Positions 1 through 15,393 of a stretch of 64,000 nucleotides of DNA are shown one piece after another (the first letter of the stretch is position 1; every line of letters begins with the position of its first letter). The position numbers were made by a program, and so were the translations under genes. The notes beneath the pieces are model-generated. The model did no database searches and was not told where the DNA came from. It saw only the letters and a list, made by a program, of their open reading frames with translations. Origin of the DNA: Elusimicrobiota bacterium (lineage in GTDB: Bacteria; Elusimicrobiota; Elusimicrobia; Elusimicrobiales; UBA9959); NCBI GenBank assembly GCA_029267355.1, contig JAJUJA010000003.1, positions 22,519-86,518 of the forward strand, in the 5' to 3' direction.

Positions 1-1101
1 TCTCCTCACCCCTCAAATGCCAGGATGACAGAGCGCACAGCAAGCAGGGTTCTGGATTTTATATTTTCATGTCCGTCGAAGGAAATCAGCATTGAATTCC
101 AGGGCGGCGAAGCGCTGCTTAATTGGCCTGTTTTAAAAAAATCGGCCGAAAAAGCTGCGGCGCTTGCCGCAAGGAAGGATAAAGATCTCAATGTTTCAGT
201 GGTTACAAATCTTTCGCTGATGAATTTTCAAATGGCGGATTATCTTTGCGAAAATGGAATTTCAGTATGCACCTCTCTTGACGGGCCGAAGGAGATTCAC
301 GATAAGAACCGGCTTTTTTTTGCCGGCTCATCGCATGATTTGGCTGTAAAATGGCTTGAGTATTTAAGGAAAAAAGTTTCTGCGGGGAAAGGCCGCAAGG
401 ATTCGCTGCCTTCGGCTTTGATGACTACCACAAGATTTTCACTTTCTGCGGCTGAAAAAATCGTAAGTCATTATCACAGCCTCGGCCTTGGCGGAATTTT
501 CATAAGGCAGCTTTCCCCCATAGGATATGCCAAAAATGTCTGGGATAAGATAGGATATTCTCCGGAGGATTTCCTCCGCTTTTATGAAGAGGCGCTTGAT
601 TGCGTGCTTAAAATAAACGGAAAAGGCGAAAGATTTATAGAGAGAAATGCCGCCATAAAACTTAAAAAATTGCTTTTTCTAAAAGACCCGAATTTTCTGG
701 ACCTGCGCTCTCCCTGCGGAGCTGCCATAGGACAGCTGGCCTACAATTGGGACGGTTCCATTTATACCTGCGATGAAGGAAGAATGACCGGCGCCGCGGG
801 CGACGATTTCTTTAAGGTCGGCAGCGTGTTTTCTTCTTCTTTCAGGGATGCTGTAAGCTCGCCGGCGGCAAAGATTTGCGCCATGTGTTCCTGCCTTGAA
901 AATCAGCCGTCCTGCTTCAGATGCGCGTTCAAGCATTATTGCGGAATTTGTCCTGTTCACAACTATGAAACTTCGGGAAGTCCGTGGGGCAATGCCGGGT
1001 TTGGCGGCTGGTGCGAGATTGAGAAGGGAATTTTCAAGATACTTTTGAAAAAAATGCGGAACAAAGAGAATAAGAAAATTTTTCTGGGATGGTTTGACTG
1101 A
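1..1101 (+). CDS. Radical SAM enzyme with C-terminal SPASM domain (anSME/peptide-maturase-like), 5'-truncated by the window edge
   Basis: Frame 1 is open from nt 1, with no stop before the ATG at 25. The FQGGEALL (GGE motif) lies about 25 aa into the ORF, but the CX3CX2C motif that normally precedes it is missing, so the N-terminus lies upstream of the window. SPASM-type cysteines are present: CGAAIGQLAYNWDGSIYTC ... CFRCAFKHYCGIC ... WC. Confidence 0.8.
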   Translation, partial: SPHPSNARMTERTASRVLDFIFSCPSKEISIEFQGGEALLNWPVLKKSAEKAAALAARKDKDLNVSVVTNLSLMNFQMADYLCENGISVCTSLDGPKEIHDKNRLFFAGSSHDLAVKWLEYLRKKVSAGKGRKDSLPSALMTTTRFSLSAAEKIVSHYHSLGLGGIFIRQLSPIGYAKNVWDKIGYSPEDFLRFYEEALDCVLKINGKGERFIERNAAIKLKKLLFLKDPNFLDLRSPCGAAIGQLAYNWDGSIYTCDEGRMTGAAGDDFFKVGSVFSSSFRDAVSSPAAKICAMCSCLENQPSCFRCAFKHYCGICPVHNYETSGSPWGNAGFGGWCEIEKGIFKILLKKMRNKENKKIFLGWFD

Positions 1102-1988
1102 TGCCTGATATATGCTTTTGGAATAAATGCGACAATAAATGCATAATGTGCACAAATCCGCCGGAGTTTTCAAGATCTTCTCCGGAAGGGAACTATGATT
1201 TTAAAACGCAGCTTGCAAAACTTGAAGCTTATCTTTCAGGCAATAAAGATACCTACTATTCAAACAGGCGCCGTCATGATTATATTTCCATTACAGGCGG
1301 CGAGCCGACAATGCATCCTGATTTTTTTGCGCTGCTTTATGCCGTAAGAAAACGGCTTCCTCAGACCCCTATAACTCTTCTTACCAACGGAAGAAGGCTC
1401 GGCGATAGAAAATTCTTTGAAAAATTTCTTAAAATAGCAAAGCAGCCTTTTTCCGTGGGCGTGCCTTTGCATTCGCAAGACAGGCAATTGTTTGAAAAAA
1501 TAACCGGCGTTAAAGGCAGTTACCTGCAGACTTTATCCTGCCTGGACAATTTGTTTGCACGCTTTCCTGGCGATGTTCAAATCAGAGTTGTCATTCATAA
1601 GCTTAATTACAAAAAAATAGGCGATATAGCGGCCTTTATCTCAAAAAGGTGGGGCAAACGCTTTAAAGCTGCTCTTATACACTATGAAATAGAAGGAATG
1701 TCAGATATAAATTCAAAAAAGGTGGGCCTTAAGCTGACGCAGTCTGCGAAAGCGATAGAAAAAAGCGCAAAAGCTCTTTCAGGGCTTGATTTTGAATTGT
1801 ATCATTATCCCCTGTGTGTTTTGTCCGATTCTCTAAGAGATAAAGCGAGAATAACTCTTCCGGGGGAGGAAAGGGTTTATCCGCCGGTTTGTTTTAGGTG
1901 CGCATTGAGAAAAAAATGTCTTGGACTTATGAAGGAATATTTTAAAGTTTACGGTTATTCTGAACTGAAGGCCCAAAGGAAGATATGA
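1101..1988 (+). CDS. Compact radical SAM enzyme, paralog 1 of 4 (CX3CX2C plus C-terminal CX2CX5C)
   Basis: CDNKCIMC (CX3CX2C) near the N-terminus, ITGGEPTMHPDF, and C-terminal PLC...CFRCALRKKCLG. The start ATG shares a base with the upstream TGA (TGATG). Confidence 0.85.
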   Translation: MPDICFWNKCDNKCIMCTNPPEFSRSSPEGNYDFKTQLAKLEAYLSGNKDTYYSNRRRHDYISITGGEPTMHPDFFALLYAVRKRLPQTPITLLTNGRRLGDRKFFEKFLKIAKQPFSVGVPLHSQDRQLFEKITGVKGSYLQTLSCLDNLFARFPGDVQIRVVIHKLNYKKIGDIAAFISKRWGKRFKAALIHYEIEGMSDINSKKVGLKLTQSAKAIEKSAKALSGLDFELYHYPLCVLSDSLRDKARITLPGEERVYPPVCFRCALRKKCLGLMKEYFKVYGYSELKAQRKI

Positions 1989-3163
1989 AGATTCATTCCA
2001 TCATAGGATATGCAGCTCTGATATTTTTTGTAATTTGGGGCTATTTTATATCTGTAGAAGACCTTAAAACAAGCAAAATATCAAACAAAAGGATAATCCT
2101 GGGTTTTCGGCTTCTTTTTGTTTTCTTCATCGCCCAGGCCGCAAACAGCATTTTAGGCAAATACGGATACGGAGAGATATACCTGAACAAAATTTATTTC
2201 TACTACCTATTTCTGAACATGGCTTTGGCGATTATGGGAGGCATAATTCTTTGGTACGGCGAAATCTGGCCCGCGGGAGACGCCAAGTTTTTTATAACTT
2301 CCGTTTCGCTGCTGCCTCTGGCCTTGCCGGAGATAGCCGGTTTTCCCGGGTATTTATGGCTTTCAGTGCTTATAAATACTTTTGTTATTGCCGGGATATA
2401 CGCAGTGGCGCGTTTTCTTTATGAAAGCTACAGAATGAAGCTGAGCGGCGATAACGACGCTTTTAAGGAGCTTAGAGATTTTAAGGAAAAGATAAGGGCT
2501 TTTTTTGCCGAGAATTCCGGCAAGACCGCGGCTCGAAAAATAGCAGGAATTTTTTTCAGTCTGGGCATAATATTTCTGGCCAAGCAGGTTTTGAATATGT
2601 ATTTGATGGGCCTTTTAGGCAGAAGCCTTTCAAAGGCTTATATAATATACTTTCTGCTGTTTTTCGGCTGGGAAAAGGCCGGAAAAATTTTTCAAAAGAA
2701 ATCATGGAAAATAGCCATGGGCGTCCTGTACGCCGTTTATTTTTCTGCCGGAATGATTTTTTTCAGGGATGAGGTTTTAAGCCATGTCTTGAAGGCGCTT
2801 TCAAATGTCGTTAAGTTCAGCGTGATTTTAACGCTTGGAAGATTTGTGCTTGAGTATCTGGTTGAAAAGAAAAACGCTTACTGGGTTTCATCAAAGGATG
2901 TCAAAGAAGGCATGGTCCTGTCATCTTTTTCCATTAAAAGCGTAAGAACCAATGAGGAAATAGCGCCTCTTTTTGAGGGTTACTATAAGGACGGTATAGA
3001 CTCAGAGCAGGCGCAGGCCCTGTCCGCGTGGCTGTCAAAGATAGACGGAGGAAAAGGTAAACTGGAGATGGTCAAGGGCTATCCGTTTGCTTTTTGGATT
3101 TACCTCGGCTGTATTTTTTTGCTGGTTTTTAATAAAAGTATCCTCTCCTTCATAAGGTTATGA
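1985..3163 (+). CDS. Polytopic membrane protein with A24 (prepilin/preflagellin-type) aspartyl-peptidase motifs and a large internal insertion
   Basis: Many hydrophobic segments. SVEDLKTSKISNK resembles the first A24 Asp motif (D-x5-I/L-P-N/D). WPAGDAKFF resembles the second (G-x-GD-x-KL). C-terminal GYPFAFWIYLG resembles the A24 PFGP-x-L tail. ATGA overlaps at both ends (1985-1988 and 3160-3163). Confidence 0.6.
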   Translation: MKIHSIIGYAALIFFVIWGYFISVEDLKTSKISNKRIILGFRLLFVFFIAQAANSILGKYGYGEIYLNKIYFYYLFLNMALAIMGGIILWYGEIWPAGDAKFFITSVSLLPLALPEIAGFPGYLWLSVLINTFVIAGIYAVARFLYESYRMKLSGDNDAFKELRDFKEKIRAFFAENSGKTAARKIAGIFFSLGIIFLAKQVLNMYLMGLLGRSLSKAYIIYFLLFFGWEKAGKIFQKKSWKIAMGVLYAVYFSAGMIFFRDEVLSHVLKALSNVVKFSVILTLGRFVLEYLVEKKNAYWVSSKDVKEGMVLSSFSIKSVRTNEEIAPLFEGYYKDGIDSEQAQALSAWLSKIDGGKGKLEMVKGYPFAFWIYLGCIFLLVFNKSILSFIRL

Positions 3164-4101
3164 ACGAAAATAAACAGGAAAAAAGACAGAAACTTGTGAT
3201 TTTTACGGGTTATGCCTGTAATAACAATTGCGTTTTCTGCATAAACGCAGATAAAAGGCAGATAAGGCCGAAAAATACCCAGGAATTGCTCAAAGAGATT
3301 TATGCTTCATCCAAAAAAGGGATTGAAATACTTGAACTTATCGGCGGAGAGCCCTCAATAAGAGATGATTTCTTTCTGCTGTTATCCGCCGCTAAAAAGG
3401 TGGGCATAAAAGAAACTGTAATAGCGACAAACGGCAGAATGTTTTCAGATTTTTCCTTTGCCAAAAAGGCGGTTGAAAGCGGTCTTGGCGCAATAATATT
3501 TTCGGTTCATGGAAGTCATGCCCGGCTGCACGATATGCTGACTCAGGCGCCAGGCTCTTTTTCGCAGCTTAAAAAAGGAATCGAAAATTTCAGAAAGTTG
3601 AAGTTCCCCAAAATAAACGGCAATACAACTGTAGTAAAGCAAAATATGAGGGATATTCCAAAAATAGCGGATTTATATGTTTCAAAAGGAATCAGGAACG
3701 TTGAGTATATATTCGTAGATCCCAACTACGGCGGCGCGAAAAATAACTTTGAAAAATATGTTCCTAAAATATCAAAGGCGGCCGTTTTTATTAAAAAAGC
3801 TTTGGATATCGGTCTTAAGGCCGGTTATGATCAATGGAAGGCAAGATATGTGCCGCTTTGCCATTTTAAGGGCTATTTTGACCATATAAGCGAGATAAAC
3901 GAGAGAAAGCTTTTTTTTGTAAGGCATTCCGCTCCGGATTTTAGAAATGAGGATGTTTTATCTTCCAGAAGAAAAGCAGGAAGAAGGAAGACCGCCGCCT
4001 GTAAGGGCTGCGCCGTTTACAGGCTTTGCGAGGGTATCTGGGTGGAATATATAAGCAGGTACGGCGATGGAGAGCTTAAGCCGGTTAAAAATGGAAATTA
4101 A
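3160..4101 (+). CDS. Compact radical SAM enzyme, paralog 2 of 4
   Basis: YACNNNCVFC (CX3CX2C), ELIGGEPSIRDDF, and C-terminal PLCHF...CKGCAVYRLCEG (CX2CX5C). Confidence 0.85.
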   Translation: MNENKQEKRQKLVIFTGYACNNNCVFCINADKRQIRPKNTQELLKEIYASSKKGIEILELIGGEPSIRDDFFLLLSAAKKVGIKETVIATNGRMFSDFSFAKKAVESGLGAIIFSVHGSHARLHDMLTQAPGSFSQLKKGIENFRKLKFPKINGNTTVVKQNMRDIPKIADLYVSKGIRNVEYIFVDPNYGGAKNNFEKYVPKISKAAVFIKKALDIGLKAGYDQWKARYVPLCHFKGYFDHISEINERKLFFVRHSAPDFRNEDVLSSRRKAGRRKTAACKGCAVYRLCEGIWVEYISRYGDGELKPVKNGN

Positions 4102-5149
4102 AGAAAAAGAAGTACAGCTTGCCGTATATCCGTGGGGTGATTGCAATATGCGCTGCCTTTACTGCTCATACAGGGGCGCGCGCGGGACTTTAAAGATAAA
4201 AGATTTTGTATCAGTTTTGAAATTCCTCAAAAAAGTTGAGCCGGGTTTTTCTAAGATAACTTTTCTCGGCGGCGAGCCGACCTTAAAACCGCGTCTTTTA
4301 AGAGCTTATTTTGAAGCGGCCGGGATAAATGCGCCGGATTGCCGGCTGTTTCTCTTTACCAACGGCCTTGAGGTTGAAGAAGGTGTTTTCAGGATTTTAA
4401 AAGAATTCAATGTTAATGTCGTCTTGAGCATAGACGGATTTGAAAGGGTAAATTACAGCCAACGGAGCAGGGCCGATAAGAAAAAGTATTCGCCCTTAAA
4501 AATAGCCGAAAAGTTTCTGTCGGCCGGGCTTAATTCTCTCGCTTTCTCTCTTACCGTTACGCCCGATAATGCCGCGTTTCTTGTTTCAAATTTGAAAAAA
4601 ATGGCGCTGCTGGGCGCTTCGGCCATAGGGTGGAATGCGGATTATGCGGCTTCATGGAGCGATTCGGATTTGAAACAGCTTAAAAAACAGATTGAAGGCG
4701 AGCGGTTATTTTATCTTAAGCTTTTAAGAGCCGGCAAGCCTTACAGAATTTCAAATTGTTATGAGCTTATGGAGGAGATTGGAAGCGGCAATAAAAGTTC
4801 CTGTTCGGCCTTTTCCCTATTCCCTGACGGTAAAATATACGCCTGCGACAAGGTATTTTCTGCCCCTTTGGAGAAAAGAAAAAAGGCCGTTTTATCAAGG
4901 GATAATTTCAAAAAAGACAGAAAAAAATTTTTCAGCACGGCCCTGAAGGCCGGCTTTGAAGATAGGGGGCTTATTTGCAGGGCAGGACTGTATTTTTATC
5001 ATAAATTTGTAAAATGTCTTGAAGGAAAAGCTCTTGAAGAAAGTCTATCGGTTTCTTTGAAGACAGCCGCCCTGATTGAAAGGGAAAAGATGAAAAGCTT
5101 GAGATTATTTATGAAATACGGCCTTTTCAGGAAGCTTCACGGATTATGA
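4067..5149 (+). CDS. Radical SAM enzyme with twitch/SPASM-like C-terminal region
   Basis: DCNMRCLYC (CX3CX2C), ITFLGGEPTLKP, CSAFSLFPDGKIYAC (C-x8-G-x4-C), and later Cys residues in ICRAG...KCLEG. It overlaps the upstream gene by 35 nt, or by 11 nt if the ATG at 4091 is the start. Confidence 0.8.
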   Translation: MESLSRLKMEIKEKEVQLAVYPWGDCNMRCLYCSYRGARGTLKIKDFVSVLKFLKKVEPGFSKITFLGGEPTLKPRLLRAYFEAAGINAPDCRLFLFTNGLEVEEGVFRILKEFNVNVVLSIDGFERVNYSQRSRADKKKYSPLKIAEKFLSAGLNSLAFSLTVTPDNAAFLVSNLKKMALLGASAIGWNADYAASWSDSDLKQLKKQIEGERLFYLKLLRAGKPYRISNCYELMEEIGSGNKSSCSAFSLFPDGKIYACDKVFSAPLEKRKKAVLSRDNFKKDRKKFFSTALKAGFEDRGLICRAGLYFYHKFVKCLEGKALEESLSVSLKTAALIEREKMKSLRLFMKYGLFRKLHGL

Positions 5150-6321
5150 GCGAAAAAGATACGGATAAAGGTTCCTGCTATGAAATATTGCTGAATTACA
5201 ATTGCAATGCGGCCTGTTCTTTTTGTTCGCAGGGCAATTTTGACAAATCCCTGAACGCGCCTTTTGAACTCATAGCCAGGGAAATATATACGGCTAAAAA
5301 GAACGGCTTTTCAAGACTCGGTTTCAGCGGCGGCGAGCCGACCGCCAATAAGAATCTTCTTAAAGCAGTAAAGCTTGCCAAAAGCGTTGGATTTAATTTT
5401 ATCAGGATACAGACAAACGGGATAAGACTCAAGGATTACTCTTATTGCCGCAGTTTAAAAAAAGCCGGGCTTACTTTCTGCAAATTTTCTTTTACAAATG
5501 ACGATGCTGTTGTGCATGACAGTCTGACGCGTGTGAACGGCTCGTGGGAGAGCGCCTCAAAAGGCCTTGAAAACATGAAAAAACTCAAGGTCAGGCTCGG
5601 CAATAATATCGTAATAAACCGCTACAACTATAACCGTCTAAAGTCCATAGTAGAGTATTTCCTCAAGAGAGGGATTTCCAATTTTGTAGTAATATACCCT
5701 ATATACACTGGTTCAATGGCAAAAAACGGCAAAAAACTGGGAGTTTCACTGCCGGACTGCGCCCCTTACTTCATGGAGACGCTTTCTTTTATGGCCTCCA
5801 TGGATATGGCCGGAGAAATCCTTTTCCTTAATGTGCCGCCATGTTTTTTGCCCGGTTATGAAAGCAATGCGATAGGAGGGGACAGGTTCAATACTGTTGT
5901 AGCCGACCCGGACGGGGGCACTATGGACCTGGACGAAAGTGCCGATTTAAACAAAAAGAAAGGCAAGCCGTGCCGATTGTGCCGGCTGAAAAACAAGTGT
6001 CACGGCGTTGATGCAGGGTATTTGAAGATTTTCGGATGGGAAGGTTTCAAGCCGGCTTCATTGAAAAAGCCGGTGCAAACTGTAGTTTCCAGGGCGTCCT
6101 ATTATACAGACAATGAAAGATGCATGATTGAGATACTTAAAAAAAGGGGAGCATTGAGCACTTCAGAGCTTTTAAAAGAGTCTCAAAAACTGGCTATTTG
6201 CAAGGATTGTTCCGACGGAGCTGCCGTAATATCTGCAGGAGAAAAGCTTTTGAAAAGAAAATTGGTGGCAAGAGAATTTAAGAAAGGCGCTTATATCTGG
6301 AAGCTGACGGGAAAAATATAA
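5146..6321 (+). CDS. Radical SAM enzyme, paralog 3 of 4, with an extra C-terminal winged-helix-like domain
   Basis: YNCNAACSFC (CX3CX2C), GFSGGEPTANKN, PPCFLPG...CRLCRLKNKCHG (CX2CX5C). A tail of about 70 aa follows (ERCMIEILKKRGALSTSELLKES...LVAREFKKGAYIWKLT) with a wHTH-like pattern. ATGA overlap at 5146-5149. Confidence 0.8.
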   Translation: MSEKDTDKGSCYEILLNYNCNAACSFCSQGNFDKSLNAPFELIAREIYTAKKNGFSRLGFSGGEPTANKNLLKAVKLAKSVGFNFIRIQTNGIRLKDYSYCRSLKKAGLTFCKFSFTNDDAVVHDSLTRVNGSWESASKGLENMKKLKVRLGNNIVINRYNYNRLKSIVEYFLKRGISNFVVIYPIYTGSMAKNGKKLGVSLPDCAPYFMETLSFMASMDMAGEILFLNVPPCFLPGYESNAIGGDRFNTVVADPDGGTMDLDESADLNKKKGKPCRLCRLKNKCHGVDAGYLKIFGWEGFKPASLKKPVQTVVSRASYYTDNERCMIEILKKRGALSTSELLKESQKLAICKDCSDGAAVISAGEKLLKRKLVAREFKKGAYIWKLTGKI

Positions 6322-7172
6322 TGCTTTTAAGAGTTATAAAAAACTGCAATCAAAATTGCGTTTTCTGCTCTTTTGACGAGAAAAAGACTGACAGACAGGA
6401 AAATCTCGCTTCTTTGGCCGCAAAGGAAAAAAAAGGTCCGGGCCTTATTCAGATTTCAGGCGGCGAGCCGCTTCTTTGCCGGCCTCAGGATTTGCTTGAT
6501 TTTTGCGGTAGGCTTGTCAAAAAAGGGAAGACCATAGAATTCCAAACCAACGGCACTCTTGTGGAATCTTTTCCGCCGGCATATTTATCAAAACTGGTTC
6601 GCTTAATTTCAGCAAGAAAAGGATATTTCAATATTAACTTTTCAGCCGCAGATGCCAAAGCTGATTTGAAAATAACTGGCCTTAAGGAAGCATTCCTGAA
6701 AAGGCTTAAGGCCGTTAAAATACTTAAATCCCTCAAAGCGGCTATAAGGCTTACTTTTGTGATAAACTCCATCAATTACAAGACTTTGAAATCTTTTGCG
6801 GTTCTGGCCGCCGGCCTGAAGCCGGATTTGATTCAGTTTAGTTTTGTTAAAGGACAGGGCAGCGCCTCAGGCAAAAAAAACATCATTCCCTCATACGAAA
6901 GCGTCTCTCCTTTTCTTATGGCAGCCATGGAAATCCTTGAAGGCAAAAAAATAAACTTTGAAATTGACCATATGCCCTGCTGCCATCTCGGCAGATTCTG
7001 GCGTTTTAATGTGGATGTGGATAAAGCCTTAAAAGGCCTGGACGGGCCGCATAAAAGCGAAAAGATACATGTTAAACAGTGCGGCGGATGCGGACTGAGA
7101 AAAGTTTGTTTCGGACCGAGAAAAGATTATTTGAAAGTGAGGAAATTCAGAAAAGGCAGGATAGCGCTATGA
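6321..7172 (+). CDS. Compact radical SAM enzyme, paralog 4 of 4
   Basis: KNCNQNCVFC (CX3CX2C), QISGGEPLL, and MPCCHLG...CGGCGLRKVCFG (CX2CX5C). TAATG overlap with the upstream gene. Confidence 0.85.
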   Translation: MLLRVIKNCNQNCVFCSFDEKKTDRQENLASLAAKEKKGPGLIQISGGEPLLCRPQDLLDFCGRLVKKGKTIEFQTNGTLVESFPPAYLSKLVRLISARKGYFNINFSAADAKADLKITGLKEAFLKRLKAVKILKSLKAAIRLTFVINSINYKTLKSFAVLAAGLKPDLIQFSFVKGQGSASGKKNIIPSYESVSPFLMAAMEILEGKKINFEIDHMPCCHLGRFWRFNVDVDKALKGLDGPHKSEKIHVKQCGGCGLRKVCFGPRKDYLKVRKFRKGRIAL

Positions 7173-8389
7173 GAAAAGAGCTGGCTCGCCTTTTCCCCGC
7201 CATTAAGAAAAAGATAAACGGGAAAGAACTTGTTTATCTTGACAGCGCCTGCACCGCTCTTAAAAATTCGGTTTCCGCGGAAATACAGGAAAAAAGTCTG
7301 CTTGAAGAAGGCTTTTGCGCCGGAGCAAGGTCTTTTAACGATGCTTCAATTCTGGCTCAGGAAAGGTTTTTACTATCCAGAAAAAAAATTGCCTGCTCTA
7401 TTAATGCCAAAGAAAGAGAAATAGTCTTTGTTTCAGGCGCCACTGAAGCGGCTAATATGGTAGCCGCTTCATTTCCCTTTAAAGCCGGAGATGAAATATT
7501 TCTGAGCGCTTTGGAGCATAATTCGGTGTTTTTGCCTTTTTGGAAAGCCGCAAAAGAAAAGAAACTTAAAATCAGGATAGTGCCTCTTAGAAATTACAAA
7601 GCTGATCTGAATCATTTCCGCCGGCAGGCCGGGAAAAAGGCCAGGATGCTTTGCCTTACCATGTCTTCAAATCTTACAGGCGGCGCGGAGGATTTTGCGG
7701 GTTTTGTATCCTTTTGCCGTCAAAAAGGCATAAAGGTCTTTCTGGACGCGGCGCAGTACATATCCTCGCATGGCCTAGATTTCGGCAAAACAGGCGCTGA
7801 TTTTGCGGTTTTTTCAGGCCATAAAATATCGGCCCCCTTCGGCACGGGAGTTCTTGCCGTGAGAGAAGACAATTTCAAACTGCTCAGGTCCTCAAAGCTT
7901 GGCGGCGGCACAATAGTGAAAATAGTCAAAGACGGCGGCTTGTATAAACCCTGTCTTCTGGATAATAATGCTTCTTTTGAGGCCGGCATACAGAATTATT
8001 CCGGAGCCCGCGCTCTGGCCGAAACTTTTTCGATTCTGGAAGAAACCGGTTATAAAAAAATAAGAACGCATATCGCCGGGCTTTGTAAAACGGCTTATGA
8101 AGTTTTAAGCTCAATAGACGGCATTAAAATCATCGGCGGCGGGCATGAGCAGGGTTCTCTGCTTTCTTTTGTTTTTGAGGGCAAGTTATCGGCGGCTGAT
8201 TTTCAGCTTTATGCCCGGGATGCCTGCAAGGCAAGTCTTGCTTTCAGAACGGGAAAAATGTGCGCAGATTTGGCCTGTCTTAATCTGGGCATAGACGGGG
8301 CTGTGAGGATTTCGTTCGGATTTTACAATGAAAAAAGGGATATAGAAATTTTTGCTCAAACCTTGAAAGATTTTTTGAGAGAATCATGA
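7169..8389 (+). CDS. Class V aminotransferase / cysteine desulfurase (SufS/CsdA-like)
   Basis: LDSACTALK near the N-terminus, the FSGHK PLP-lysine motif, and C-terminal RTGKMCADL resembling the SufS R-x-G-H-H-C active-site Cys loop. I placed the start at ATG 7169 (ATGA overlap with the upstream stop) rather than the track start at 7079, which lies inside the previous gene. Confidence 0.8.
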   Translation: MRKELARLFPAIKKKINGKELVYLDSACTALKNSVSAEIQEKSLLEEGFCAGARSFNDASILAQERFLLSRKKIACSINAKEREIVFVSGATEAANMVAASFPFKAGDEIFLSALEHNSVFLPFWKAAKEKKLKIRIVPLRNYKADLNHFRRQAGKKARMLCLTMSSNLTGGAEDFAGFVSFCRQKGIKVFLDAAQYISSHGLDFGKTGADFAVFSGHKISAPFGTGVLAVREDNFKLLRSSKLGGGTIVKIVKDGGLYKPCLLDNNASFEAGIQNYSGARALAETFSILEETGYKKIRTHIAGLCKTAYEVLSSIDGIKIIGGGHEQGSLLSFVFEGKLSAADFQLYARDACKASLAFRTGKMCADLACLNLGIDGAVRISFGFYNEKRDIEIFAQTLKDFLRES

Positions 8390-9090
8390 AAAAGAAAAAG
8401 CTTCATATCTGTTCTTTCGGGCTTAAACCGTCGGATATCTCAATTGAAGCGGCTCAGATCATCAGGAACTGTGCGGTTGTATCAGATTCTCTTAGAAGCG
8501 ACAATAAGCTGGCTGAAGCGGCAAAAAGCTTTTCCTTCGCCAGGGCCTTTAATGATAAGGGCGAAAAGGGGGATTTAGAGAGAGAAATAAGAAAAGCGCT
8601 CAAAGAAAACGGCGAGGCCGCATATTTTACCTGCGGGAATCCGCTTTTTTTAAATGAGCTGCATTTGGGAATTATGAAAAAATTTTCAGCCGAAGCCGAT
8701 ATCAGGCTTTATCCGGCAGTTTCTTCGCTGGATTATGTTTTTCAGTTCATAAGGGAAAAATTTTTAATAGATGATTTTGACTGCGTCTGCCTTATGCGCC
8801 CCAGATTTTTCCCCAGGGAATATTCATATTCGCCTTTGCTGGTCTTTAATCCTTTTTCTCTGCTTAAAGATGCGGGAATAATGAAAAAATTCTGTTCCAT
8901 TGTAAGGCAGTATTATCCTGGCAGCCATAAAGCCTATGCAATAAAGCTGCCGGCATACCCGGATTACAGCTGCAGCTTGAGAAAATCCAGCGTTAAGGAT
9001 ATAGAAAAATTTTTGAGAAAAATGTCTCCAGAAGAGACCTTGTATCTGCCGGGCAATTTTAAAAATGAGAATTGCGAAAATGACTGGTGA
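8386..9090 (+). CDS. Tetrapyrrole-methylase-fold (TP_methylase superfamily) protein, divergent
   Basis: The motif order matches the fold: KLHICSFGLKPSDISIEAAQIIRNCAVV (cf. LYIVGIGPGD...L..A...l..advv), GEAAYFTCGNPLFLNE (cf. V-x-L-x-x-GDP), and IRLYPAVSSLDYVF (cf. v-PG-v-SS). GDP is changed to GNP. ATGA overlap at 8386-8389. Confidence 0.5.
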   Translation: MKKKKLHICSFGLKPSDISIEAAQIIRNCAVVSDSLRSDNKLAEAAKSFSFARAFNDKGEKGDLEREIRKALKENGEAAYFTCGNPLFLNELHLGIMKKFSAEADIRLYPAVSSLDYVFQFIREKFLIDDFDCVCLMRPRFFPREYSYSPLLVFNPFSLLKDAGIMKKFCSIVRQYYPGSHKAYAIKLPAYPDYSCSLRKSSVKDIEKFLRKMSPEETLYLPGNFKNENCENDW

Positions 9091-9162
9091 TTTGGGCTTT
9101 ATAAAATATCGGGCAAATAATGTACAATAAATTGATGGCCTTTGCCGCCAAAGGAGATTGAA

Positions 9163-10365
9163 ATGGATATAAAACCCGAAATTTTAAACAGGAAAATAAA
9201 ATCATACGAAAAGGATATGATCGCTTTCGCCAGAGACATGGTAAGGATCCCGTCTTTTTCATGTCAGGAAGGAAAACTGGTTGAAAGAATAAAGAAGGAA
9301 ATGATAAAAGCCGGTTTTGACAGGATAAAAATAGACTCAATGGGCAATATCATAGGCTTCATAGGCAAGGGAAAAACCAAGCTGATGATTGATGCTCATA
9401 TAGACACTGTAGGCGTCGGCGACCCCAAGGCCTGGAAAATAGACCCTTTCGCCGGAGTTTTTAAAAACGGCGCCATATACGGAAGAGGGGCCACTGATCA
9501 GAAGCTTTCAATGGTATCTATGGTGTATGCCGGCAAGGCTATAAAAGAGCTCGGCCTCGGCAAGGATTACACCTATATAGCTGTGGGTTCGGTTCAGGAG
9601 GAGGATTGCGACGGTTTGCCGCTTCTTCACATCATAAACAAGGAGAAAATAAAGCCGGATTTTGTCGTTTTGACAGAACCGACTAATCTGGCCGTTTACA
9701 GAGGCCACAGGGGAAGAATGGAGATGAAAGTTACTGTAAAAGGCCGATCCTGTCATGCTTCAGCTCCGGAAAGGGGAGACAATGCCATAACTAAAATGTC
9801 ATACATAGTCCAGGAGATAGACAGGCTGAATAAGAGGCTTAAAAATGACAAGTTTTTGGGAAAAGGCACGGTGGCTGTGACATTTACTGAAGCTAAGACG
9901 CCTTCTCTTAATGCCGTTCCCGATGAATGCGTCATTTATCTGGACAGGCGTTTAACTGTCGGCGAAACTCTCAAAAGCTCCGTAAAAGAAATAGAATCTC
10001 TGCCTTCTGTCAAGAAATTCAAGGCAAAGGTTGAAGTGCTGCAATATGACGCAGTTTCATGGACAGGGCTTAAGGTAGGGCAGGAGAAATATTTCCCTAC
10101 CTGGGTTTTGCCTGAAAATCACAAGCTTGTTCAAGCCGGAGCTGAAGCGGGCAAAGCATCGTTGGGGAAAATGCCTGTGGTTGATAAATGGGTTTTTTCC
10201 ACTAACGGAGTGGCCAGCGCGGGCAGGCTGGGAATTCCGACCATAGGTTTTGGGCCTTCAAATGAAGTTTATGCTCACACGGTTAATGAATTCATGCCGG
10301 TTGAACATCTGCTCAAAGCGGCTTCTTTTTATGCCTGCATAGGCGAATTTTTAACAAGCAAATAA
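9163..10365 (+). CDS. ygeY: YgeY-family M20 peptidase (putative selenium-metabolism hydrolase family)
   Basis: Long collinear similarity to E. coli YgeY as I remember it: VRIPSFSCQEG, DAHIDTVGVGD, VQEEDCDG, YRGHRGRMEMKVTVKGRSCHASAPERGDNAI, DKWVFSTNGV, GFGP. An AAAGGAG RBS precedes ATG 9163. The track start at 9142 is a TTG upstream of that RBS. Confidence 0.9.
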   Translation: MDIKPEILNRKIKSYEKDMIAFARDMVRIPSFSCQEGKLVERIKKEMIKAGFDRIKIDSMGNIIGFIGKGKTKLMIDAHIDTVGVGDPKAWKIDPFAGVFKNGAIYGRGATDQKLSMVSMVYAGKAIKELGLGKDYTYIAVGSVQEEDCDGLPLLHIINKEKIKPDFVVLTEPTNLAVYRGHRGRMEMKVTVKGRSCHASAPERGDNAITKMSYIVQEIDRLNKRLKNDKFLGKGTVAVTFTEAKTPSLNAVPDECVIYLDRRLTVGETLKSSVKEIESLPSVKKFKAKVEVLQYDAVSWTGLKVGQEKYFPTWVLPENHKLVQAGAEAGKASLGKMPVVDKWVFSTNGVASAGRLGIPTIGFGPSNEVYAHTVNEFMPVEHLLKAASFYACIGEFLTSK

Positions 10366-10377
10366 ACAGGAGGATAA

Positions 10378-11583
10378 ATGAGCGTAAAAATTAATAAATC
10401 TGAGATAATGAGCCAAATAGGCGAGCTTGAGGATCTCAAGGCGGACCTTTACGGGAAAGATTTTCTTCTTACCTGGGAAAAATCGGATGCCCAGCTTCAC
10501 AGCGTGCTTAAGATAGCCGAGATACTTAAACAGATGCATTCTGAAAACATTGACGTTTCAATGTTCAAAACAGGCCTTGCGGTTTCAAATTTCAGGGATA
10601 ATTCAACAAGAACCAGATTTTCTTTCGCCAGCGCCTGCAATCTGCTTGGTCTGGCTGTACAGGACCTGGATGAGGGGAAATCCCAGATAGCTCACGGCGA
10701 GACGGTGAGAGAAACAGCCAACATGATCTCCTTCTTGACCGAGGCCATAGGCATAAGAGATGATATGTTCATAGGAAAGGGTCATACTTATATGAAGGAA
10801 GTGGCTGAAGCCCTGGATGACGGCTATAAAAACGGCGTCTTAAATCAGAGGCCGGCTGTTGTTAATCTGCAATGCGACCTGGATCATCCGACGCAGACCA
10901 TGTCTGACTTGCTGTTTTTGAAAAATTACTTCGGCGGATTTGAAAAATTGAAAGGCAAAAAGATAGCAATGACATGGGCTTATTCGCCAAGCTACGGCAA
11001 ACCGCTTTCAGTTCCGCAGGGCATAATAGCGCTTATGACCAGATTCGGTATGGAAGTTGAGCTGGCCTATCCTCAGGGCTATGACCTGCTCGGCGAGACC
11101 ATAGAAATCGCCAAAAATAATGCGAAAAAATCTGGCGGCTCTTTCAAGATTTCAAATTCAATGGAAAGCGCCTTCAAAGATGCTGATATAGTCTATCCCA
11201 AGAGCTGGGCTCCTTACGCCGTAATGGAGAAAAGGACCAAGCTTCTTGAACAAAGGGACCAAAACGGCCTGAAGGAGCTTGAAAAGGAATGTCTAGCCCA
11301 AAATGCAAAATATGATTCATGGGAATGCGACGCTGATAAGATGAAACTTACAAGGAAAGGCGAAGCGGTGTATATGCATTGTCTTCCGGCTGATATAACA
11401 GGCGTGTCCTGCAAGAAAGGCGAGGTTTCGGCTGAAGTTTTTGAAAAATACCGCATCGGTACTTACAAGGAAGCCGGCTATAAGCCTTTTGTAATAGCCG
11501 CCATGATAGCCGCCTGCTCCAAGAAGAATCCTGCGCAGATTCTCAGGGAACTGTATAAGAAGGCGGAAAAAAGAGTTCTGTGA
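10378..11583 (+). CDS. ygeW: YgeW-type knotted carbamoyltransferase (ATC/OTC superfamily)
   Basis: KDFLLTWE, FRDNSTRTRFSFASA, DLDEGKSQIAHGETVRETANMISF, VNLQCDLDHPTQ, KKIAMTWAYSPSYGKPLSVPQG and YMHCLPADI are near-identical blocks to E. coli YgeW as I recall it. AGGAGG RBS. Confidence 0.9.
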   Translation: MSVKINKSEIMSQIGELEDLKADLYGKDFLLTWEKSDAQLHSVLKIAEILKQMHSENIDVSMFKTGLAVSNFRDNSTRTRFSFASACNLLGLAVQDLDEGKSQIAHGETVRETANMISFLTEAIGIRDDMFIGKGHTYMKEVAEALDDGYKNGVLNQRPAVVNLQCDLDHPTQTMSDLLFLKNYFGGFEKLKGKKIAMTWAYSPSYGKPLSVPQGIIALMTRFGMEVELAYPQGYDLLGETIEIAKNNAKKSGGSFKISNSMESAFKDADIVYPKSWAPYAVMEKRTKLLEQRDQNGLKELEKECLAQNAKYDSWECDADKMKLTRKGEAVYMHCLPADITGVSCKKGEVSAEVFEKYRIGTYKEAGYKPFVIAAMIAACSKKNPAQILRELYKKAEKRVL

Positions 11584-11603
11584 GTTGTTTGCTTGACTTG
11601 TTA

Positions 11604-11633
11604 CGGCGGGCTTTAATGCCCGCCGTGTTTTTT
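11604..11633 (+). terminator. Rho-independent terminator after ygeW
   Basis: Perfect 8-bp GC stem CGGCGGGC/GCCCGCCG (11604-11611 and 11618-11625), 6-nt loop TTTAAT, followed by TGTTTTTT. Confidence 0.8.
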
Positions 11634-13586
11634 ATGAGCGTTTATTCGTTTCTTTTTTCTATACTGCTTGCTTTGCCCCTATGCGCCGATGATTTTATAC
11701 AGTATTACTGCCGGGATATCAAAAAGCCTTTTTTTAAAATAGAAGAGGTAAATGGAGAAAAAAGAGTAAGACCGAACAGGCCCAAGGCGCATTATTTTGA
11801 TTTTCTATTTAAGAAGGCAGGCAACAAAAAAAGAGTTTTCATAATAGGCGAATCAGTTGCCGATATTCTTTATTCAAATAAAGATATGCCTCCCGGCCAG
11901 CCGTTCTGGGGCTTGAAAGATATTGAGATATTTGATTTCGGCATGGCTGCCTATGACAGTAAAAGATTGAAAGACGTTTTTTTGCAAAGTCTGGAATTTT
12001 CGCCTGATGCCGTGATAATAATGAGCGGGAACAATGAAAATTTCAATGAGCCTTGCACTGATATCTTCTCCATAACAAAAAAAAGATATCTGAATCTTTC
12101 ATACAGGCTGGCCAAACTTTTTTCAAATGAAAGGGAGAAGCTTTTCAATTTAAGCCTTGAAATTCAAAAAGATAATCTGTCCGAGATGATAGATAAGGCT
12201 TCAAAAAAAGGCGTAAAGGTTTTTGTAACTACGCTGCCTTACAATATTTTTCTTCCTCCCAGCGGAGAAAGACCTTCAAATAAAGAATATATCCCCGGCT
12301 ATCTGGCATACGATTCAGGCAAGTATCCGCTTGCGGCAGAAATTTTTGGAAAAATAGTTTTGAAAGATAAAACAAAGGAGCCTTTTGCCAGGTATTATCT
12401 TGGGATGTCTTTGTACAAAACAGGCAAAAAAAGGGAAGCCTTTGAAAAACTTGTTGAGGCGGTTAATTTTGATAATCGTCTTGACAGGGCGGGTTATACA
12501 AGAAATCAAATGCTGAGGCAGCTGGCTTTGGATAAAAAAATCGGGCTGATAGATCTTGAAAAGGAGTTTCTAAGAGTTTCAAACGACGCGTATTTTATAA
12601 AAGAGGATTTTTTTGCTGACGGGGTGCATTGGCTGAGAGAAAATAATTTTTCGATACAGAATTTCTTTGTTTCACAGTTAAGGGAGGCTTTTTTTAATGA
12701 AAAACCGGAAGCTCTAAAATGGACTGCCGAAGATTTATACGGCGAGAACCGCTCATCGCTGGCTTTATCTTATGCAGCAAGCTCTCTTTCTCTTAAAAAT
12801 CAGGATAAGATTTGCGAAATCAATGAAAGATCGCTTTATTTCCTTGACAGATATCTCTCTTATGGAGGAAAACTGGAGAAGGTGAATATCCTCAGGGAAC
12901 TCAAATCAAATTCTTTTGCCGCAGGATATGAAAAAATTTTTCTAAAGGCCTATCCATATCTTGCAGCTGAATATTTTTCAAGAAAAAGCCTTAAAAGAGA
13001 AGCAGAATTTTTTTTGGAATTGCTTGAGCCAAACGATGCGTGTTCCATAAAAGTGAAGCTTTCAGCCGCCAGCCGGAAGGGCGCTTGCAAAGAAATAGAA
13101 GCGCTTAAAGACGATTTTGAAAAGTCAAAACTTGCTGATTATTATTACGGCTATGGATGTTACGCCTGTTCCGGCATATGCAAAAACTTAAAAAAGAAAG
13201 ATTTTAAATCCGATCCCCAAAGAGATTTAAAGGCAAAAAAATATTCGGATAGGGCAGTTTTGCTCATAAAAGAAAACCGTCTTAAGGAAGCTGAAAAAGA
13301 GCTTGAAACCGCTCTTTCAATAAATCCCTATCATTTCGAAAGTTTGATGAATATGGCGTATGTTCTGCAATTGCTCAACAGATATGAAGAAGCCCCGGTC
13401 TTTCTGGATGCAGCCGAGGAAATATCAGGAAAACTTTCAAAATCGCAGGCTTGCGGCGTTTATCTTTCCAGAGCGTATATATTTGAAAAGACGGGCGACA
13501 GGGAAAAAGCTGAGATTGAGAGGGAAAAATCAAAATCTTTTTGCCGGGATATGGAGAATAATTCAGGCGGGGAAAGCAGGAAATGA
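11634..13586 (+). CDS. Exported SGNH/GDSL-like hydrolase fused to TPR repeats
   Basis: Signal-like N-terminus MSVYSFLFSILLALPLCA. SGNH blocks FIIGESVA (block I, GES rather than GDS), MSGNNE (block III) and DGVHW (block V). TPR-like helices in the middle and at the C-terminus (AEKELETALSINPYHFESLMNMAYV...). The start is moved to ATG 11634 because the track's GTG 11580 start would translate through the terminator hairpin. Confidence 0.6.
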   Translation: MSVYSFLFSILLALPLCADDFIQYYCRDIKKPFFKIEEVNGEKRVRPNRPKAHYFDFLFKKAGNKKRVFIIGESVADILYSNKDMPPGQPFWGLKDIEIFDFGMAAYDSKRLKDVFLQSLEFSPDAVIIMSGNNENFNEPCTDIFSITKKRYLNLSYRLAKLFSNEREKLFNLSLEIQKDNLSEMIDKASKKGVKVFVTTLPYNIFLPPSGERPSNKEYIPGYLAYDSGKYPLAAEIFGKIVLKDKTKEPFARYYLGMSLYKTGKKREAFEKLVEAVNFDNRLDRAGYTRNQMLRQLALDKKIGLIDLEKEFLRVSNDAYFIKEDFFADGVHWLRENNFSIQNFFVSQLREAFFNEKPEALKWTAEDLYGENRSSLALSYAASSLSLKNQDKICEINERSLYFLDRYLSYGGKLEKVNILRELKSNSFAAGYEKIFLKAYPYLAAEYFSRKSLKREAEFFLELLEPNDACSIKVKLSAASRKGACKEIEALKDDFEKSKLADYYYGYGCYACSGICKNLKKKDFKSDPQRDLKAKKYSDRAVLLIKENRLKEAEKELETALSINPYHFESLMNMAYVLQLLNRYEEAPVFLDAAEEISGKLSKSQACGVYLSRAYIFEKTGDREKAEIEREKSKSFCRDMENNSGGESRK

Positions 13587-14221: not shown

Positions 14222-14248
14222 TTTTAGAATTTTTAATGGAGAGAAAAT

Positions 14249-15367: not shown

Positions 15368-15393
15368 TTTTACCGGAAGCTGCGGCTAAAAGT

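Follow-up and report, generated by a model that had tools for sequence, protein, structure and literature searches.

A nine-gene radical SAM operon of Elusimicrobiota, probably part of an expanded Hxs-type peptide-maturation system

The first 9,090 positions of the window (the whole 64 kb stretch of DNA that was analysed) hold nine open reading frames, all on the + strand and, as the ORF list and inspection of the junctions show, overlapping at every junction. They encode six radical SAM (rSAM) enzymes, an A24-like membrane protein, a SufS-like desulfurase and a TP-methylase-fold protein:

1..1101, + strand: ORF1, HxsB radical SAM/SPASM maturase by profile match (NCBIfam TIGR03978, 369.1 bits, cut-off 370)
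1101..1988, + strand: ORF2, HxsC-like radical SAM enzyme, 295 aa (top NCBIfam match HxsC, TIGR03977)
1985..3163, + strand: ORF3, polytopic membrane protein with A24-type (prepilin peptidase-like) aspartyl protease motifs (motifs, sub-threshold Pfam match)
3160..4101, + strand: ORF4, HxsC4-like radical SAM enzyme, 313 aa (top NCBIfam match HxsC4, NF038332)
4091..5149, + strand: ORF5, PapB-like radical SAM enzyme with a partial SPASM/twitch cysteine pattern (top NCBIfam match PapB family)
5146..6321, + strand: ORF6, HxsC/HxsC4-like radical SAM enzyme, 391 aa (NCBIfam HxsC4 96.6 bits, HxsC 81 bits)
6321..7172, + strand: ORF7, HxsC-like radical SAM enzyme, 283 aa (top NCBIfam match HxsC, 73.2 bits)
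7169..8389, + strand: ORF8, SufS/CsdA-like PLP-dependent cysteine desulfurase, 406 aa (Pfam Aminotran_5, 244.4 bits)
8386..9090, + strand: ORF9, class III (TP-methylase-fold) SAM methyltransferase homologue of a rare family (Pfam, PDB profile search, Foldseek)

The junctions consist of TGATG at 1101 (ORF1/ORF2), ATGA at 1985, 3160, 5146, 7169 and 8386, and TAATG at 6321 (ORF6/ORF7). The nine-gene overlapping operon described in the first-pass annotation was confirmed in its gene types, its coordinates and all eight junctions. The 35-nt overlap of ORF4 and ORF5 at 4067 holds for ORF5 as listed, but the ATG at 4091 (11-nt overlap, 352 aa) seems the likelier start, since the orthologues measure 352 aa with an 11-nt overlap (L001) and 349 aa (L075). 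The GTG-7079 extension of ORF8 is unneeded, the ATG at 7169 yielding the ATGA overlap. ORF1 is open from base 1, with the C-terminal 366 aa in the window and the N-terminus and CX3CX2C motif outside it; the window edge cuts the operon, and ORF1 to ORF9 are probably the last nine of thirteen genes.

All six rSAM ORFs contain GGE, and CX3CX2C is present in the window sequence of ORF2, ORF4, ORF5, ORF6 and ORF7. The C-terminal CX2CX5C motif is carried by five ORFs (ORF1, ORF2, ORF4, ORF6 and ORF7). Five of the rSAM ORFs match Pfam Radical_SAM with 45 to 79 bits and, nearly all of their orthologues, taken from as many as 56 other loci, retain CX3CX2C (ORF1 47/51, ORF2 56/56, ORF4 56/56, ORF5 22/22, ORF6 40/40 and ORF7 33/33). 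Given these Pfam scores and motif conservation, the nine ORFs are not chance ORFs.

The first-pass annotation had found no pathway to which this gene set could be matched, a statement that no longer holds, since ORF1 corresponds to HxsB by its profile score and, for four further rSAM ORFs, the best NCBIfam match is HxsC or HxsC4. The truncated ORF1, in which a seven-Cys SPASM region and GGE were seen, aligns to positions 110-465 of the 466 in TIGR03978, and its full-length L001 orthologue (cluster motif CNHACVYC) scores 427.3 bits against the same model. By best match, ORF2, ORF4, ORF6 and ORF7 are HxsC/HxsC4-type paralogues; nevertheless, all four lie far under the curated cut-offs, which counts against the Hxs assignment (ORF2, 166.4 bits against 267.9 for HxsC; ORF4, 148.2 bits across the full profile length against 500 for HxsC4). 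ORF2 orthologues keep GGE in 56/56 and the C-terminal CX2CX5C in 55/56, and the motifs of ORF4 (56/56) and all three of ORF7 (33/33) are also kept. ORF6 has its CX2CX5C at aa 276 and carries a C-terminal extension of about 90 aa. ORF5 reaches 77.5 bits with the PapB family, under the cut-off of 340, and GGE is conserved in its 22/22 orthologues.

In the first-pass annotation, one protein had been called A24-like, another a class V desulfurase and a third a TP-methylase-fold protein, and each of these calls stands at motif or fold level. In ORF3, which has in addition a long insertion and a small soluble domain, D26, N34 and W95-P-A-G-D99-A-K101 are invariant across 21 homologues, WPAGDAK is found in all 69 loci with the ORF3 family, and three motifs align in order with E. 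coli GspO. The match to Pfam Peptidase_A24 is sub-threshold (17.2 bits, threshold 26.5), with 8/21 family members matching this model (best E 2.8e-5), and no significant support came from Foldseek (AF2 model, pLDDT 84.9), from a profile search of the PDB or from hhalign with GspO. The A24 assignment, which thus comes from motifs and sub-threshold Pfam matches, is a point against our main reading. ORF8 scores 245.5 bits with the NCBIfam SufS subfamily (cut-off 475) and contains the PLP-Lys motif SGHK and the catalytic-Cys motif RTGKMCA, both also present in 32/32 orthologues.

ORF9 belongs to a family with 33 representatives among 1.84 billion proteins; among the loci fetched with the ORF3 profile it occurs only in L001 and L004, and a family member is also present in the cluster of L074. 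Its score with Pfam TP_methylase is 27.9 bits (cut-off 27.8). Against the PDB, the family profile retrieved the peptide methyltransferases dbOphMA/OphMA (4e-20), MroMA (5e-17) and SonM (1e-14) ahead of CbiF (4e-12), diphthine synthase (4.5e-11) and SUMT (2e-10), and the 50 top Foldseek PDB matches of the AF2 model (pLDDT 89.5) are all SonM, OphMA or MroMA (E ~1e-12, TM ~0.7). The closest solved relatives are borosin peptide alpha-N-methyltransferases, not tetrapyrrole methylases, and the TP-methylase fold does not point to a tetrapyrrole. A Cys occupies the position aligned with OphMA Tyr98, which is a further point against our main reading.

A profile search recovered the ORF3 family in 69 loci from species-representative genomes, all except one from Elusimicrobiota or unclassified MAGs. 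The cluster is syntenic phylum-wide: the gene-neighbourhood check proposed in the first-pass annotation gave the order HxsC (ORF2 orthologue), A24-like ORF3 and ORF4 orthologue, as direct neighbours, in 52/71 loci. Close relatives (65 to 72% identity) have four extra genes upstream in the operon, namely a U32 pair, a PEP-utilising enzyme and a seventh rSAM gene, and the accessory genes of the clade comprise the PEP-utilising enzyme, ORF9 or a second U32 pair. In L061, HxsA4, U32, its partner and the orthologues of ORF1 to ORF8 follow one another on one strand, in window order. The first-pass annotation had pointed to published work in which groundwater Elusimicrobia have suites of rSAM genes beside nitrogenase-like paralogues; such a paper exists (bioRxiv 10.1101/765248), and NifH/D/K-like genes indeed flank the cluster in 12/71 related loci and in the further relative L074. 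No nitrogenase-like genes flank it in the 64 kb window, and NifH-like genes just upstream are unlikely, because in three close relatives the operon starts with a U32 gene abutting a divergent shikimate operon.

In 17 loci, the HxsA4 profile identified a precursor gene that lies upstream of the one for the A24-like protein and belongs to the same co-directional cluster. These precursors (90 to 140 aa) have a basic N-terminus, a conserved leader (FLxSEEGK...D..K....LGIxG), a hydrophobic segment, a segment H(S/T)N(Y/F), long His-rich (His-Gly-Ser)n repeats and usually an RGGWC tail. The L003 precursor scores 74.2 bits with NCBIfam NF038313 (cut-off 55) and the adjacent HxsD 54.8 bits (cut-off 50). 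Two observations count against our reading: the leader has no Pfam Flp match, and one HxsA4 cluster, from Omnitrophota, lacks any A24-like gene within 20 kb, so that the A24-like protease is not universally coupled to HxsA4. As the first-pass annotation had remarked for the operon, no substrate gene is visible, and this is true for the whole 64 kb window: HxsA4 was not found by profile, HxS-repeat regexes or leader regexes, HxsD was not found, and an ORF scan returned no His-rich, Cys-rich, G-X-Y or repeat-rich small ORF. HxsA4 and HxsD were likewise not found in the 21 kb loci of the close relatives L001, L004, L075 and L076, and the first HxsB copy is absent from these and from the window. 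An unlinked precursor is common, since at least seven compact HxsB-HxsD-HxsC loci have no HxsA4 within 10 kb.

The canonical Hxs system was characterised in 2026: HxsA is matured by HxsB and HxsC through N-terminal processing plus covalent modification (a +8 Da change at SHRSS) and exported, its basic HxS repeats blocking DNA entry (PMC13128918). We consider it probable that this operon represents a greatly expanded form, specific to Elusimicrobiota, of the Hxs radical SAM system for peptide maturation, with an HxsA4-type substrate from another locus.

Three other explanations were weighed. The product could be a cofactor and not a peptide, either derived from a tetrapyrrole or a metallocofactor, along the lines suggested for the Group VI nitrogenase-like clusters of Elusimicrobia, with the rSAM enzymes acting like NirJ, AhbC/D or MoaA and ORF9 as a tetrapyrrole methylase. 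A tetrapyrrole has been proposed in the literature (bioRxiv 10.1101/765248; PMC13474568), ORF4, ORF6 and ORF7 have secondary matches to AhbD, NirJ and MoaA (40 to 76 bits), ORF9 passes the TP_methylase threshold by 0.1 bit, and nitrogenase-like genes accompany some related loci. However, those pathway matches are far under their cut-offs (231 to 650 bits) and are all outranked by the Hxs models, the profile and fold matches of ORF9 favour peptide methyltransferases, the core of the cluster includes a membrane protease-like gene, and the ribosomal precursor gene lies within 17 related clusters, including L056 and L022, which contain nitrogenase-like genes; we regard a cofactor product as very unlikely. 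Nor do we favour coupling of the operon, in this clade, to a substrate other than HxsA4, be it another unlinked protein or peptide or a product of its own, such as the ORF6 C-terminal extension. The missing HxsA4, HxsD and first HxsB copy, the clade's own accessory genes and the unexplained extension would fit such uncoupling, but L049 and L061 join HxsA4 and the U32 module in one locus (L049 also with the PEP-utilising gene), unlinked precursors are common and the window offers no alternative small ORF, which makes it quite improbable.

An antiphage defence role, in which a matured His-rich peptide in the cell envelope would block phage DNA entry as in canonical HXS, concerns role and is compatible with a peptide-maturation mechanism. 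The homology of HxsB and HxsC, the activity of exported HxsA and the leader, hydrophobic segment and long repeat of HxsA4 argue for it. Nevertheless, the cluster keeps one chromosomal position, adjoining an M20 peptidase gene (75 to 90% identical across loci), while the cluster genes there have diverged to 33 to 60% identity, which suggests vertical inheritance and not a mobile defence island. Moreover, HxsA4 is short, with no peptidoglycan-binding domain match, PADLOC returned generic rSAM and desulfurase matches only, and at least seven rSAM genes, together with nitrogenase-like, U32 and PEP-utilising genes, go far beyond the four genes of canonical HXS. Such a role seems unlikely.

Returning to the expanded Hxs system, the substrate is most likely a small His-Gly-Ser repeat peptide of the HxsA4 type, judging from the related loci, and its gene would lie elsewhere in the genome in this clade. 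HxsB, the four HxsC-type paralogues and the PapB-like enzyme would each perform a radical-mediated modification on the repeat or tail region; if the canonical system is a guide, these modifications could be cross-links or the insertion of carbon at His/Ser. The leader may be removed at the membrane by the A24-like intramembrane aspartyl protease, possibly coupled to export, and the SufS-like desulfurase would supply persulfide sulfur that goes either into the many Fe-S clusters or into the product itself, while ORF9 would methylate the peptide. Of the off-window upstream genes known from relatives, the U32 pair (UbiU/UbiV-like) would contribute an O2-independent hydroxylation and the PEP-utilising enzyme an ATP-dependent transfer of a phosphoryl group. 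The multi-step rSAM maturation line of the first-pass annotation is borne out, with a ribosomal peptide as its best-supported substrate, and the operon probably corresponds to the uncharacterised variant that carries the NCBI model names HxsA4 and HxsC4.

The nine-gene operon at window positions 1-9090 is real and conserved, but it is not unclassifiable: where the first-pass annotation had found no pathway that could be named, we recognise an expanded, uncharacterised variant of the His-Xaa-Ser (Hxs) radical SAM (rSAM) system. All nine + strand ORFs described in that annotation (ORF1 to ORF9) are present, their rSAM motifs are as described on re-inspection, and the eight overlapping junctions are exact (TGATG at 1101, ATGA at 1985, 3160, 5146, 7169 and 8386, TAATG at 6321 and a 35-nt overlap at 4067). 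The listed start of ORF5 at 4067 is probably to be corrected to the ATG at 4091, which gives an 11-nt overlap and a protein of 352 aa (352 and 349 aa in the orthologues of L001 and L075, two closely related loci), and ORF8 starts at the ATG at 7169, the upstream GTG being discarded. Since the reading frame of ORF1 is open from base 1, its N-terminus lies off the window. By motif inspection, CX3CX2C is found in ORF2, ORF4, ORF5, ORF6 and ORF7, GGE in all six rSAM ORFs, and a C-terminal CX2CX5C in ORF1, ORF2, ORF4, ORF6 and ORF7.

The Pfam Radical_SAM family is matched above threshold, with 45 to 79 bits, by ORF2, ORF4, ORF5, ORF6 and ORF7, and the NCBIfam matches of the six rSAM genes are as follows.

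NCBIfam matches of the rSAM genes (all + strand, window 1-9090)
ORF1 (open from base 1): best match HxsB, TIGR03978; 369.1 bits, cut-off 370; profile positions 110-465
ORF2: best match HxsC, TIGR03977; 166.4 bits, cut-off 267.9; profile positions 33-289 of 292
ORF4: best match HxsC4, NF038332; 148.2 bits, cut-off 500; end-to-end alignment to the profile
ORF5: best match PapB family; 77.5 bits, cut-off 340
ORF6 (5146-6321): HxsC4, 96.6 bits, cut-off 500; HxsC, 81 bits, cut-off 268
ORF7: best match HxsC; 73 bits, cut-off 268

ORF1 is nearly at the HxsB cut-off despite about 100 missing residues, and the complete L001 protein, an orthologue with 66% identity, reaches 427.3 bits; judged by these scores, HxsB (TIGR03978) is present in the operon. 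ORF2, whose HxsC match is below the cut-off, directly adjoins ORF1, placing an HxsC-like gene beside HxsB. The HxsC4 cut-off of 500 is reached neither by ORF4 and ORF6 nor by the rSAM protein encoded upstream in L001 (146.2 bits). In ORF6 we also noticed that the protein continues for about 90 aa past CX2CX5C (residues ~300-391); this C-terminal extension has no family match and could be a substrate-recognition domain.

Membership of a heme d1, alternative heme, F430 or molybdopterin pathway was rejected, as all cofactor-pathway scores are outranked by the Hxs models. Matches to NirJ, AhbD, MoaA and PqqE are secondary and far under their cut-offs, and there is no equivalog-level match to NirJ, AhbC/D or MoaA, the best being AhbD (76 bits, cut-off 500), archaeal MoaA (71, cut-off 325) and bacterial MoaA (64, cut-off 231).

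A scan of species-representative genomes with a profile of ORF3, the A24-like membrane protein, gave 69 loci, all from Elusimicrobiota or unclassified MAGs save one partial Omnitrophota match; the species of the window is not represented among them, the best match being 72%. Synteny, followed with a tblastn matrix and adjacency counts over 71 loci, is phylum-wide: the order HxsC, A24-like gene, ORF4 orthologue is kept in 52 of the 71 loci, usually with the orthologues of ORF6, ORF7 and the SufS-like ORF8 next. The closest relatives (L001 and L004, 72% identity; L075 and L076, 65%) have one common layout, in which a divergent shikimate and chorismate mutase operon on the opposite strand is followed by genes for a U32 protein (UbiU/TrhP-like), its Cys-rich partner, a PEP-utilising enzyme, an HxsC4-like rSAM and HxsB, and then by the window order. 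On this layout, the complete operon probably has 13 genes, seven of them for rSAM enzymes, and the window would contain the final nine, the upstream gene content being inferred from L001, L004 and L075 only. The tail of the operon is variable: L001, L004 and L074 have ORF9 there, as the window does, L003 has one more rSAM gene and L075 a second U32 pair.

Downstream, the cluster adjoins an M20 peptidase gene in 23 loci, and M20 is 75 to 90% identical across loci where the cluster genes are 33 to 60% identical, which suggests that the peptidase gene is a housekeeping neighbour and that the cluster has been inherited vertically. We rejected the M20, OTCase-like and carbamate kinase genes as members of the system on this difference in identity and because a gap of about 70 nt separates ORF9 from M20, which has its own AGGAG ribosome-binding site; no convincing terminator was found in that gap. 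The stretch at 9142-15367 encodes M20, an OTCase-like protein and, named by reading the translations, a 668-aa TPR protein, a small lipoprotein-like ORF and a carbamate kinase-like protein. Elsewhere in the window, one tRNA gene (55336-55406) is the sole Rfam match at the gathering threshold, and the AT skew of about 0.33 at 60196-64000 is explained by one coiled-coil-like ORF, rich in Glu and Lys and longer than 1268 aa, which continues past the window end.

The U32 gene and its Cys-rich partner open the operon in L001 (1-5236) and L075 (1-5148), divergent from the chorismate mutase/shikimate operon. Prephenate is reported to be the oxygen donor of U32 hydroxylases, and the adjacency of the two operons may therefore be functional.

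A candidate substrate comes from the relatives. With the HxsA4 profile, 17 loci were found to have a small ORF upstream of the A24-like gene. Its product has a basic N-terminus, the invariant leader FLxSEEGK...D..K....LGIxG, a segment H(S/T)N(Y/F) and His-Gly-Ser repeats, 8 to 25 in number, and finishes with RGGWC, or with HGSY in the two loci that diverge most. The L003 protein passes NF038313 (74.2 bits, cut-off 55) and its neighbour passes HxsD (54.8 bits, cut-off 50); NCBI already labels such proteins 'His-Xaa-Ser repeat protein HxsA4'. The tightest link between HxsA4 and the window gene order is L061, where HxsA4, U32, its partner, an rSAM gene, HxsB, HxsC, the A24-like gene, the ORF4 to ORF8 orthologues and then M20 and the OTCase-like gene lie on one strand. 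The L003 cluster is collinear too. The absence of a substrate gene, claimed earlier for the operon, holds for the whole 64 kb window: no HxsA-type precursor was found with an HxS regex, a leader plus RGGWC regex or an unfiltered HxsA4 HMM, and a composition scan gave no His-rich, Cys-rich or G-X-Y ORF. Both HxsA4 and HxsD are absent from the window, L001, L004, L075 and L076; L003 HxsD (TIGR03976), which by tblastn finds counterparts in 35 of the 71 related loci, has no match in the window, L001 or L004. At least seven other compact HxsB-HxsD-HxsC-A24 loci also lack HxsA4 within 10 kb, so an unlinked precursor seems to be common. In terms of the NCBIfam 'type 4' models (HxsA4, NF038313; the 'rare' HxsC4, NF038332), the precursors of the 17 related clusters are HxsA4 and ORF4 spans the whole HxsC4 profile, yet ORF4 scores 148 bits against 500 and the window is without HxsA4. 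Neither HxsA4 nor HxsC4 is mentioned in the literature searched, so these names carry no tested function.

Other features recur around HxsA4. A Cys-rich protein with a hydrophobic N-terminus and no family match is encoded directly before it in L003 (1547-2665, 372 aa) and L077 (9231-9971, 246 aa), and this gene occurs in both Elusimicrobiota and Omnitrophota clusters (14 loci by tblastn). Among HxsA4 of L003 (2673-3047) and 10 other HxsA4 genes, Pfam Collagen is matched in 8 of 11 (best E 3.6e-6); (His-Gly-Ser)n is formally a Gly-X-Y triplet repeat, and the resemblance may be a coincidence. U32 proteins, first described as collagenases, recur as pairs in HxsA4 clusters (e.g., L049, L061 and L079). 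The L079 cluster also holds a seryl-tRNA synthetase paralogue (14498-15676, 392 aa) amid its rSAM genes, together with HxsD, a 69-aa ORF, HxsB and a U32 pair. In L021, a 160-aa ORF directly upstream of HxsB (6787-7269) looks, by eye, like a second HxsD-like protein (RDLREFMILKAL).

The canonical four-gene system of Pseudomonadota (HxsD-HxsB-HxsC-HxsA; TIGR03976 to TIGR03979) was shown only in 2026 to act in phage defence; its HxsB and HxsC bring about N-terminal processing and a +8 Da modification, of still unsolved chemistry, at an SHRSS motif, with HxsD as a binding partner of HxsC (Li et al., 2026; PMC13128918). As in that system, in the window an HxsB-type SPASM rSAM is directly followed by an HxsC-type rSAM; related clusters likewise have HxsD and a ribosomally made target that carries His-Xaa-Ser repeats in tandem. 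The differences are considerable: the window has six rSAM genes (seven with the upstream one) against two, a polytopic A24-like protein occupies the slot after HxsC where HXS has HxsA, and SufS, a methyltransferase, a U32 pair and a PEP-utilising enzyme are additions. The HxsA4 proteins of relatives are 90 to 140 aa long and contain 8 to 25 HGS repeats, and a peptidoglycan-binding domain was not detected in them. The window-type cluster occurs in Elusimicrobiota, while Pseudomonadota account for 99.7% of HXS systems, and it looks vertically inherited. By analogy with the canonical system, a defence role is possible, but the fixed chromosomal position, the cluster size and the undetected peptidoglycan-binding domain in HxsA4 argue against simple equivalence. 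On the operon, PADLOC found only similarity to pVip and DndA/SspA, and membership of these defence systems was rejected, the similarity being generic.

In ORF3, residues D26, N34 and W95-P-A-G-D99-A-K101 do not vary among 21 homologues, whose identity is as low as 20%, and WPAGDAK is kept in 69 of 69 genomic loci. Three motifs of ORF3 can be matched, in the same order, to E. coli GspO; the first two contain the two catalytic aspartates of A24 peptidases.

Motifs of ORF3 (+ strand) aligned with E. coli GspO (ORF3 first)
Motif 1: SVEDLKTSKISNK and SVIDFRTQLLPDK
Motif 2: GDAKFF and GDFKLL
Motif 3: PFAFWIYLG and AFGPWLALG

ORF3 carries the Peptidase A24 motifs (D...[PS][ND] and GxGD.K, with two catalytic Asp), and shares with PilD/GspO, TadV/CpaA and FlaK the series SVxD[LF][KR]Txx[IL][SP][ND]K, GD[AF]K[FL][FL] and [PA]F[AG]xW[IL]xLG, in that order, as well as the polytopic membrane topology of A24 prepilin peptidases. 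Unlike these, it contains an insert of about 220 aa, helical and soluble, and pilus or secretion genes are absent nearby. No significant similarity to Peptidase A24 was found by Pfam gathering score, profile or fold: ORF3 has 17.2 bits to PF01478 (cut-off 26.5), which is matched by 8 of the 21 family members (best E 2.8e-5); its AF2 model (pLDDT 84.9) has no Foldseek match in the PDB; the family profile did not find an A24 structure there; and hhalign with E. coli GspO gave a probability of 0.1%. For these reasons we call ORF3 A24-like at the motif level only.

ORF8 matches Pfam Aminotran_5 above threshold (244 bits), and its PLP lysine (SGHK) and catalytic cysteine loop (RTGKMCA) are present, as in 32 of 32 orthologues. 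Since it scores 245.5 bits against a cut-off of 475 for the NCBIfam SufS subfamily, we consider it a divergent SufS/CsdA member. ORF9, just above the Pfam TP_methylase cut-off (27.9 bits, cut-off 27.8), belongs to a rare family, with 33 representatives among 1.84 billion proteins, the named ones being from Elusimicrobiota. As a single sequence it has no significant match in the PDB; matches were seen with the family profile only.

PDB matches of the ORF9 (+ strand) family profile
dbOphMA/OphMA, borosin peptide alpha-N-methyltransferases: 4e-20, over the full domain
MroMA: 5e-17
SonM: 1e-14
CbiF: 4e-12
Diphthine synthase: 4.5e-11
SUMT: 2e-10

The AF2 model of ORF9 (pLDDT 89.5) finds SonM, OphMA or MroMA in all of the top 50 Foldseek PDB matches (E ~1e-12, TM ~0.7). 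Together with the profile ranking, this points to a peptide or protein substrate rather than a tetrapyrrole. With its best matches, the borosin methyltransferases (OphMA, dbOphMA, MroMA and split SonM/SonA), ORF9 has in common the class III methyltransferase fold, and it keeps the presumed SAM-site motifs (G12, G84-N-P86 and S113-S114); the sequence identity is 12 to 17%, and a borosin-type core peptide is neither fused nor adjacent. The catalytic Tyr/Arg set of OphMA, which we take to be Y63, Y66, R72, Y76 and Y98 (partly from mutant structures among the fold matches), does not recur in ORF9: the Tyr98 position is Tyr in most family members and Cys83 in the window and L001, and the R72/Y76 region is not alignable.

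The first-pass annotation had pointed to published rSAM suites next to nitrogenase-like paralogues in Elusimicrobia, correctly: Group VI NifH paralogues lie beside up to 13 rSAM genes in groundwater Elusimicrobia, and tetrapyrrole reduction was proposed for them (Meheust et al., 2020). A July 2026 review (PMC13474568) lists the function of Group VI nitrogenase-like (NFL) clusters as unknown, with tetrapyrrole guessed, and neither publication mentions HxS peptides. The operon shares with these clusters the phylum and the kind of rSAM suite, and ORF3-family and HxsB-like genes occur in NFL-bearing loci, with HxsA4 in L056 and L022. Of the 71 related loci, 12 have NifH/D/K-like genes. L074 has them too: its gene order is that of the window, including an ORF9 homologue, and next to it lie a NifD-like gene, a NifH-NifD fusion and U32. 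In L056, the order is HxsB-like, HxsA4, rSAM, NifH-like (265 bits), two NifD/K-like, two rSAM, A24-like and two rSAM genes. The nitrogenase-like genes lie inside or beside the clusters with A24-like and HxsB-like genes at L056:1274-13166, L022:384-7443 and L074:11409-15512, the HxsA4 of L056 and L022 being a His-Gly-Ser repeat precursor. The window differs in having no nitrogenase-like gene: tblastn and motif searches of the 64 kb gave no NifH, NifD or NifK-like match, and such genes are absent from the loci of the closest relatives. The earlier suggestion that NifH-like genes may lie just upstream of the window is unlikely to hold, because the operon of the close relatives begins at U32.

Beside the observed family assignments, motif conservation in orthologues, synteny and co-location of HxsA4 in relatives, we infer a maturation line in which HxsB, the four HxsC-type paralogues and the PapB-like enzyme would each modify an HxsA4-type peptide, ORF8 would give sulfur to Fe-S clusters or to the product, and ORF9 would add a methyl group to the peptide. 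ORF3 would cut off the leader at the membrane. For this last step, HxsA4 has (K/R)FLxSEEG|K ahead of a hydrophobic segment, which is loosely Flp prepilin-like (the Flp prepilin sequence is RFLKDESG|ATAIEY). Against it, the putative leader resembles the Flp G|XXXXEY site only loosely, HxsA4 has no Pfam Flp match, Collagen being the only one, and an Omnitrophota HxsA4 cluster is without an A24-like gene within 20 kb.

More tentatively, and with rather low confidence, HxsA4 clusters in Elusimicrobiota and some other phyla might make a heavily modified (Gly-Ser-His)n product, such as a redox cofactor or a metal-binding peptide, and Group VI NFL reductases might act on or with this peptide and not on a tetrapyrrole; in these clusters, numerous rSAM enzymes are combined with an A24-like protease and a pair of U32 hydroxylases. 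If it were true, the window would be the nitrogenase-like-free core of a modified-peptide pathway, with in addition a borosin-related methyltransferase of a new subfamily. The Hxs family itself is known; what is new is an expanded variant with unexplored chemistry and a testable link to Group VI NFL genes. With about three times the radical enzymes of HXS, a dedicated protease-like protein of the membrane, a desulfurase, a relative of peptide methyltransferases and, upstream in relatives, homologues of anaerobic hydroxylases, the operon is a promising source of new peptide chemistry. Since the same gene families, HxsA4 included, are found inside Group VI NFL clusters, a defined ribosomal peptide candidate makes the function of these clusters testable.
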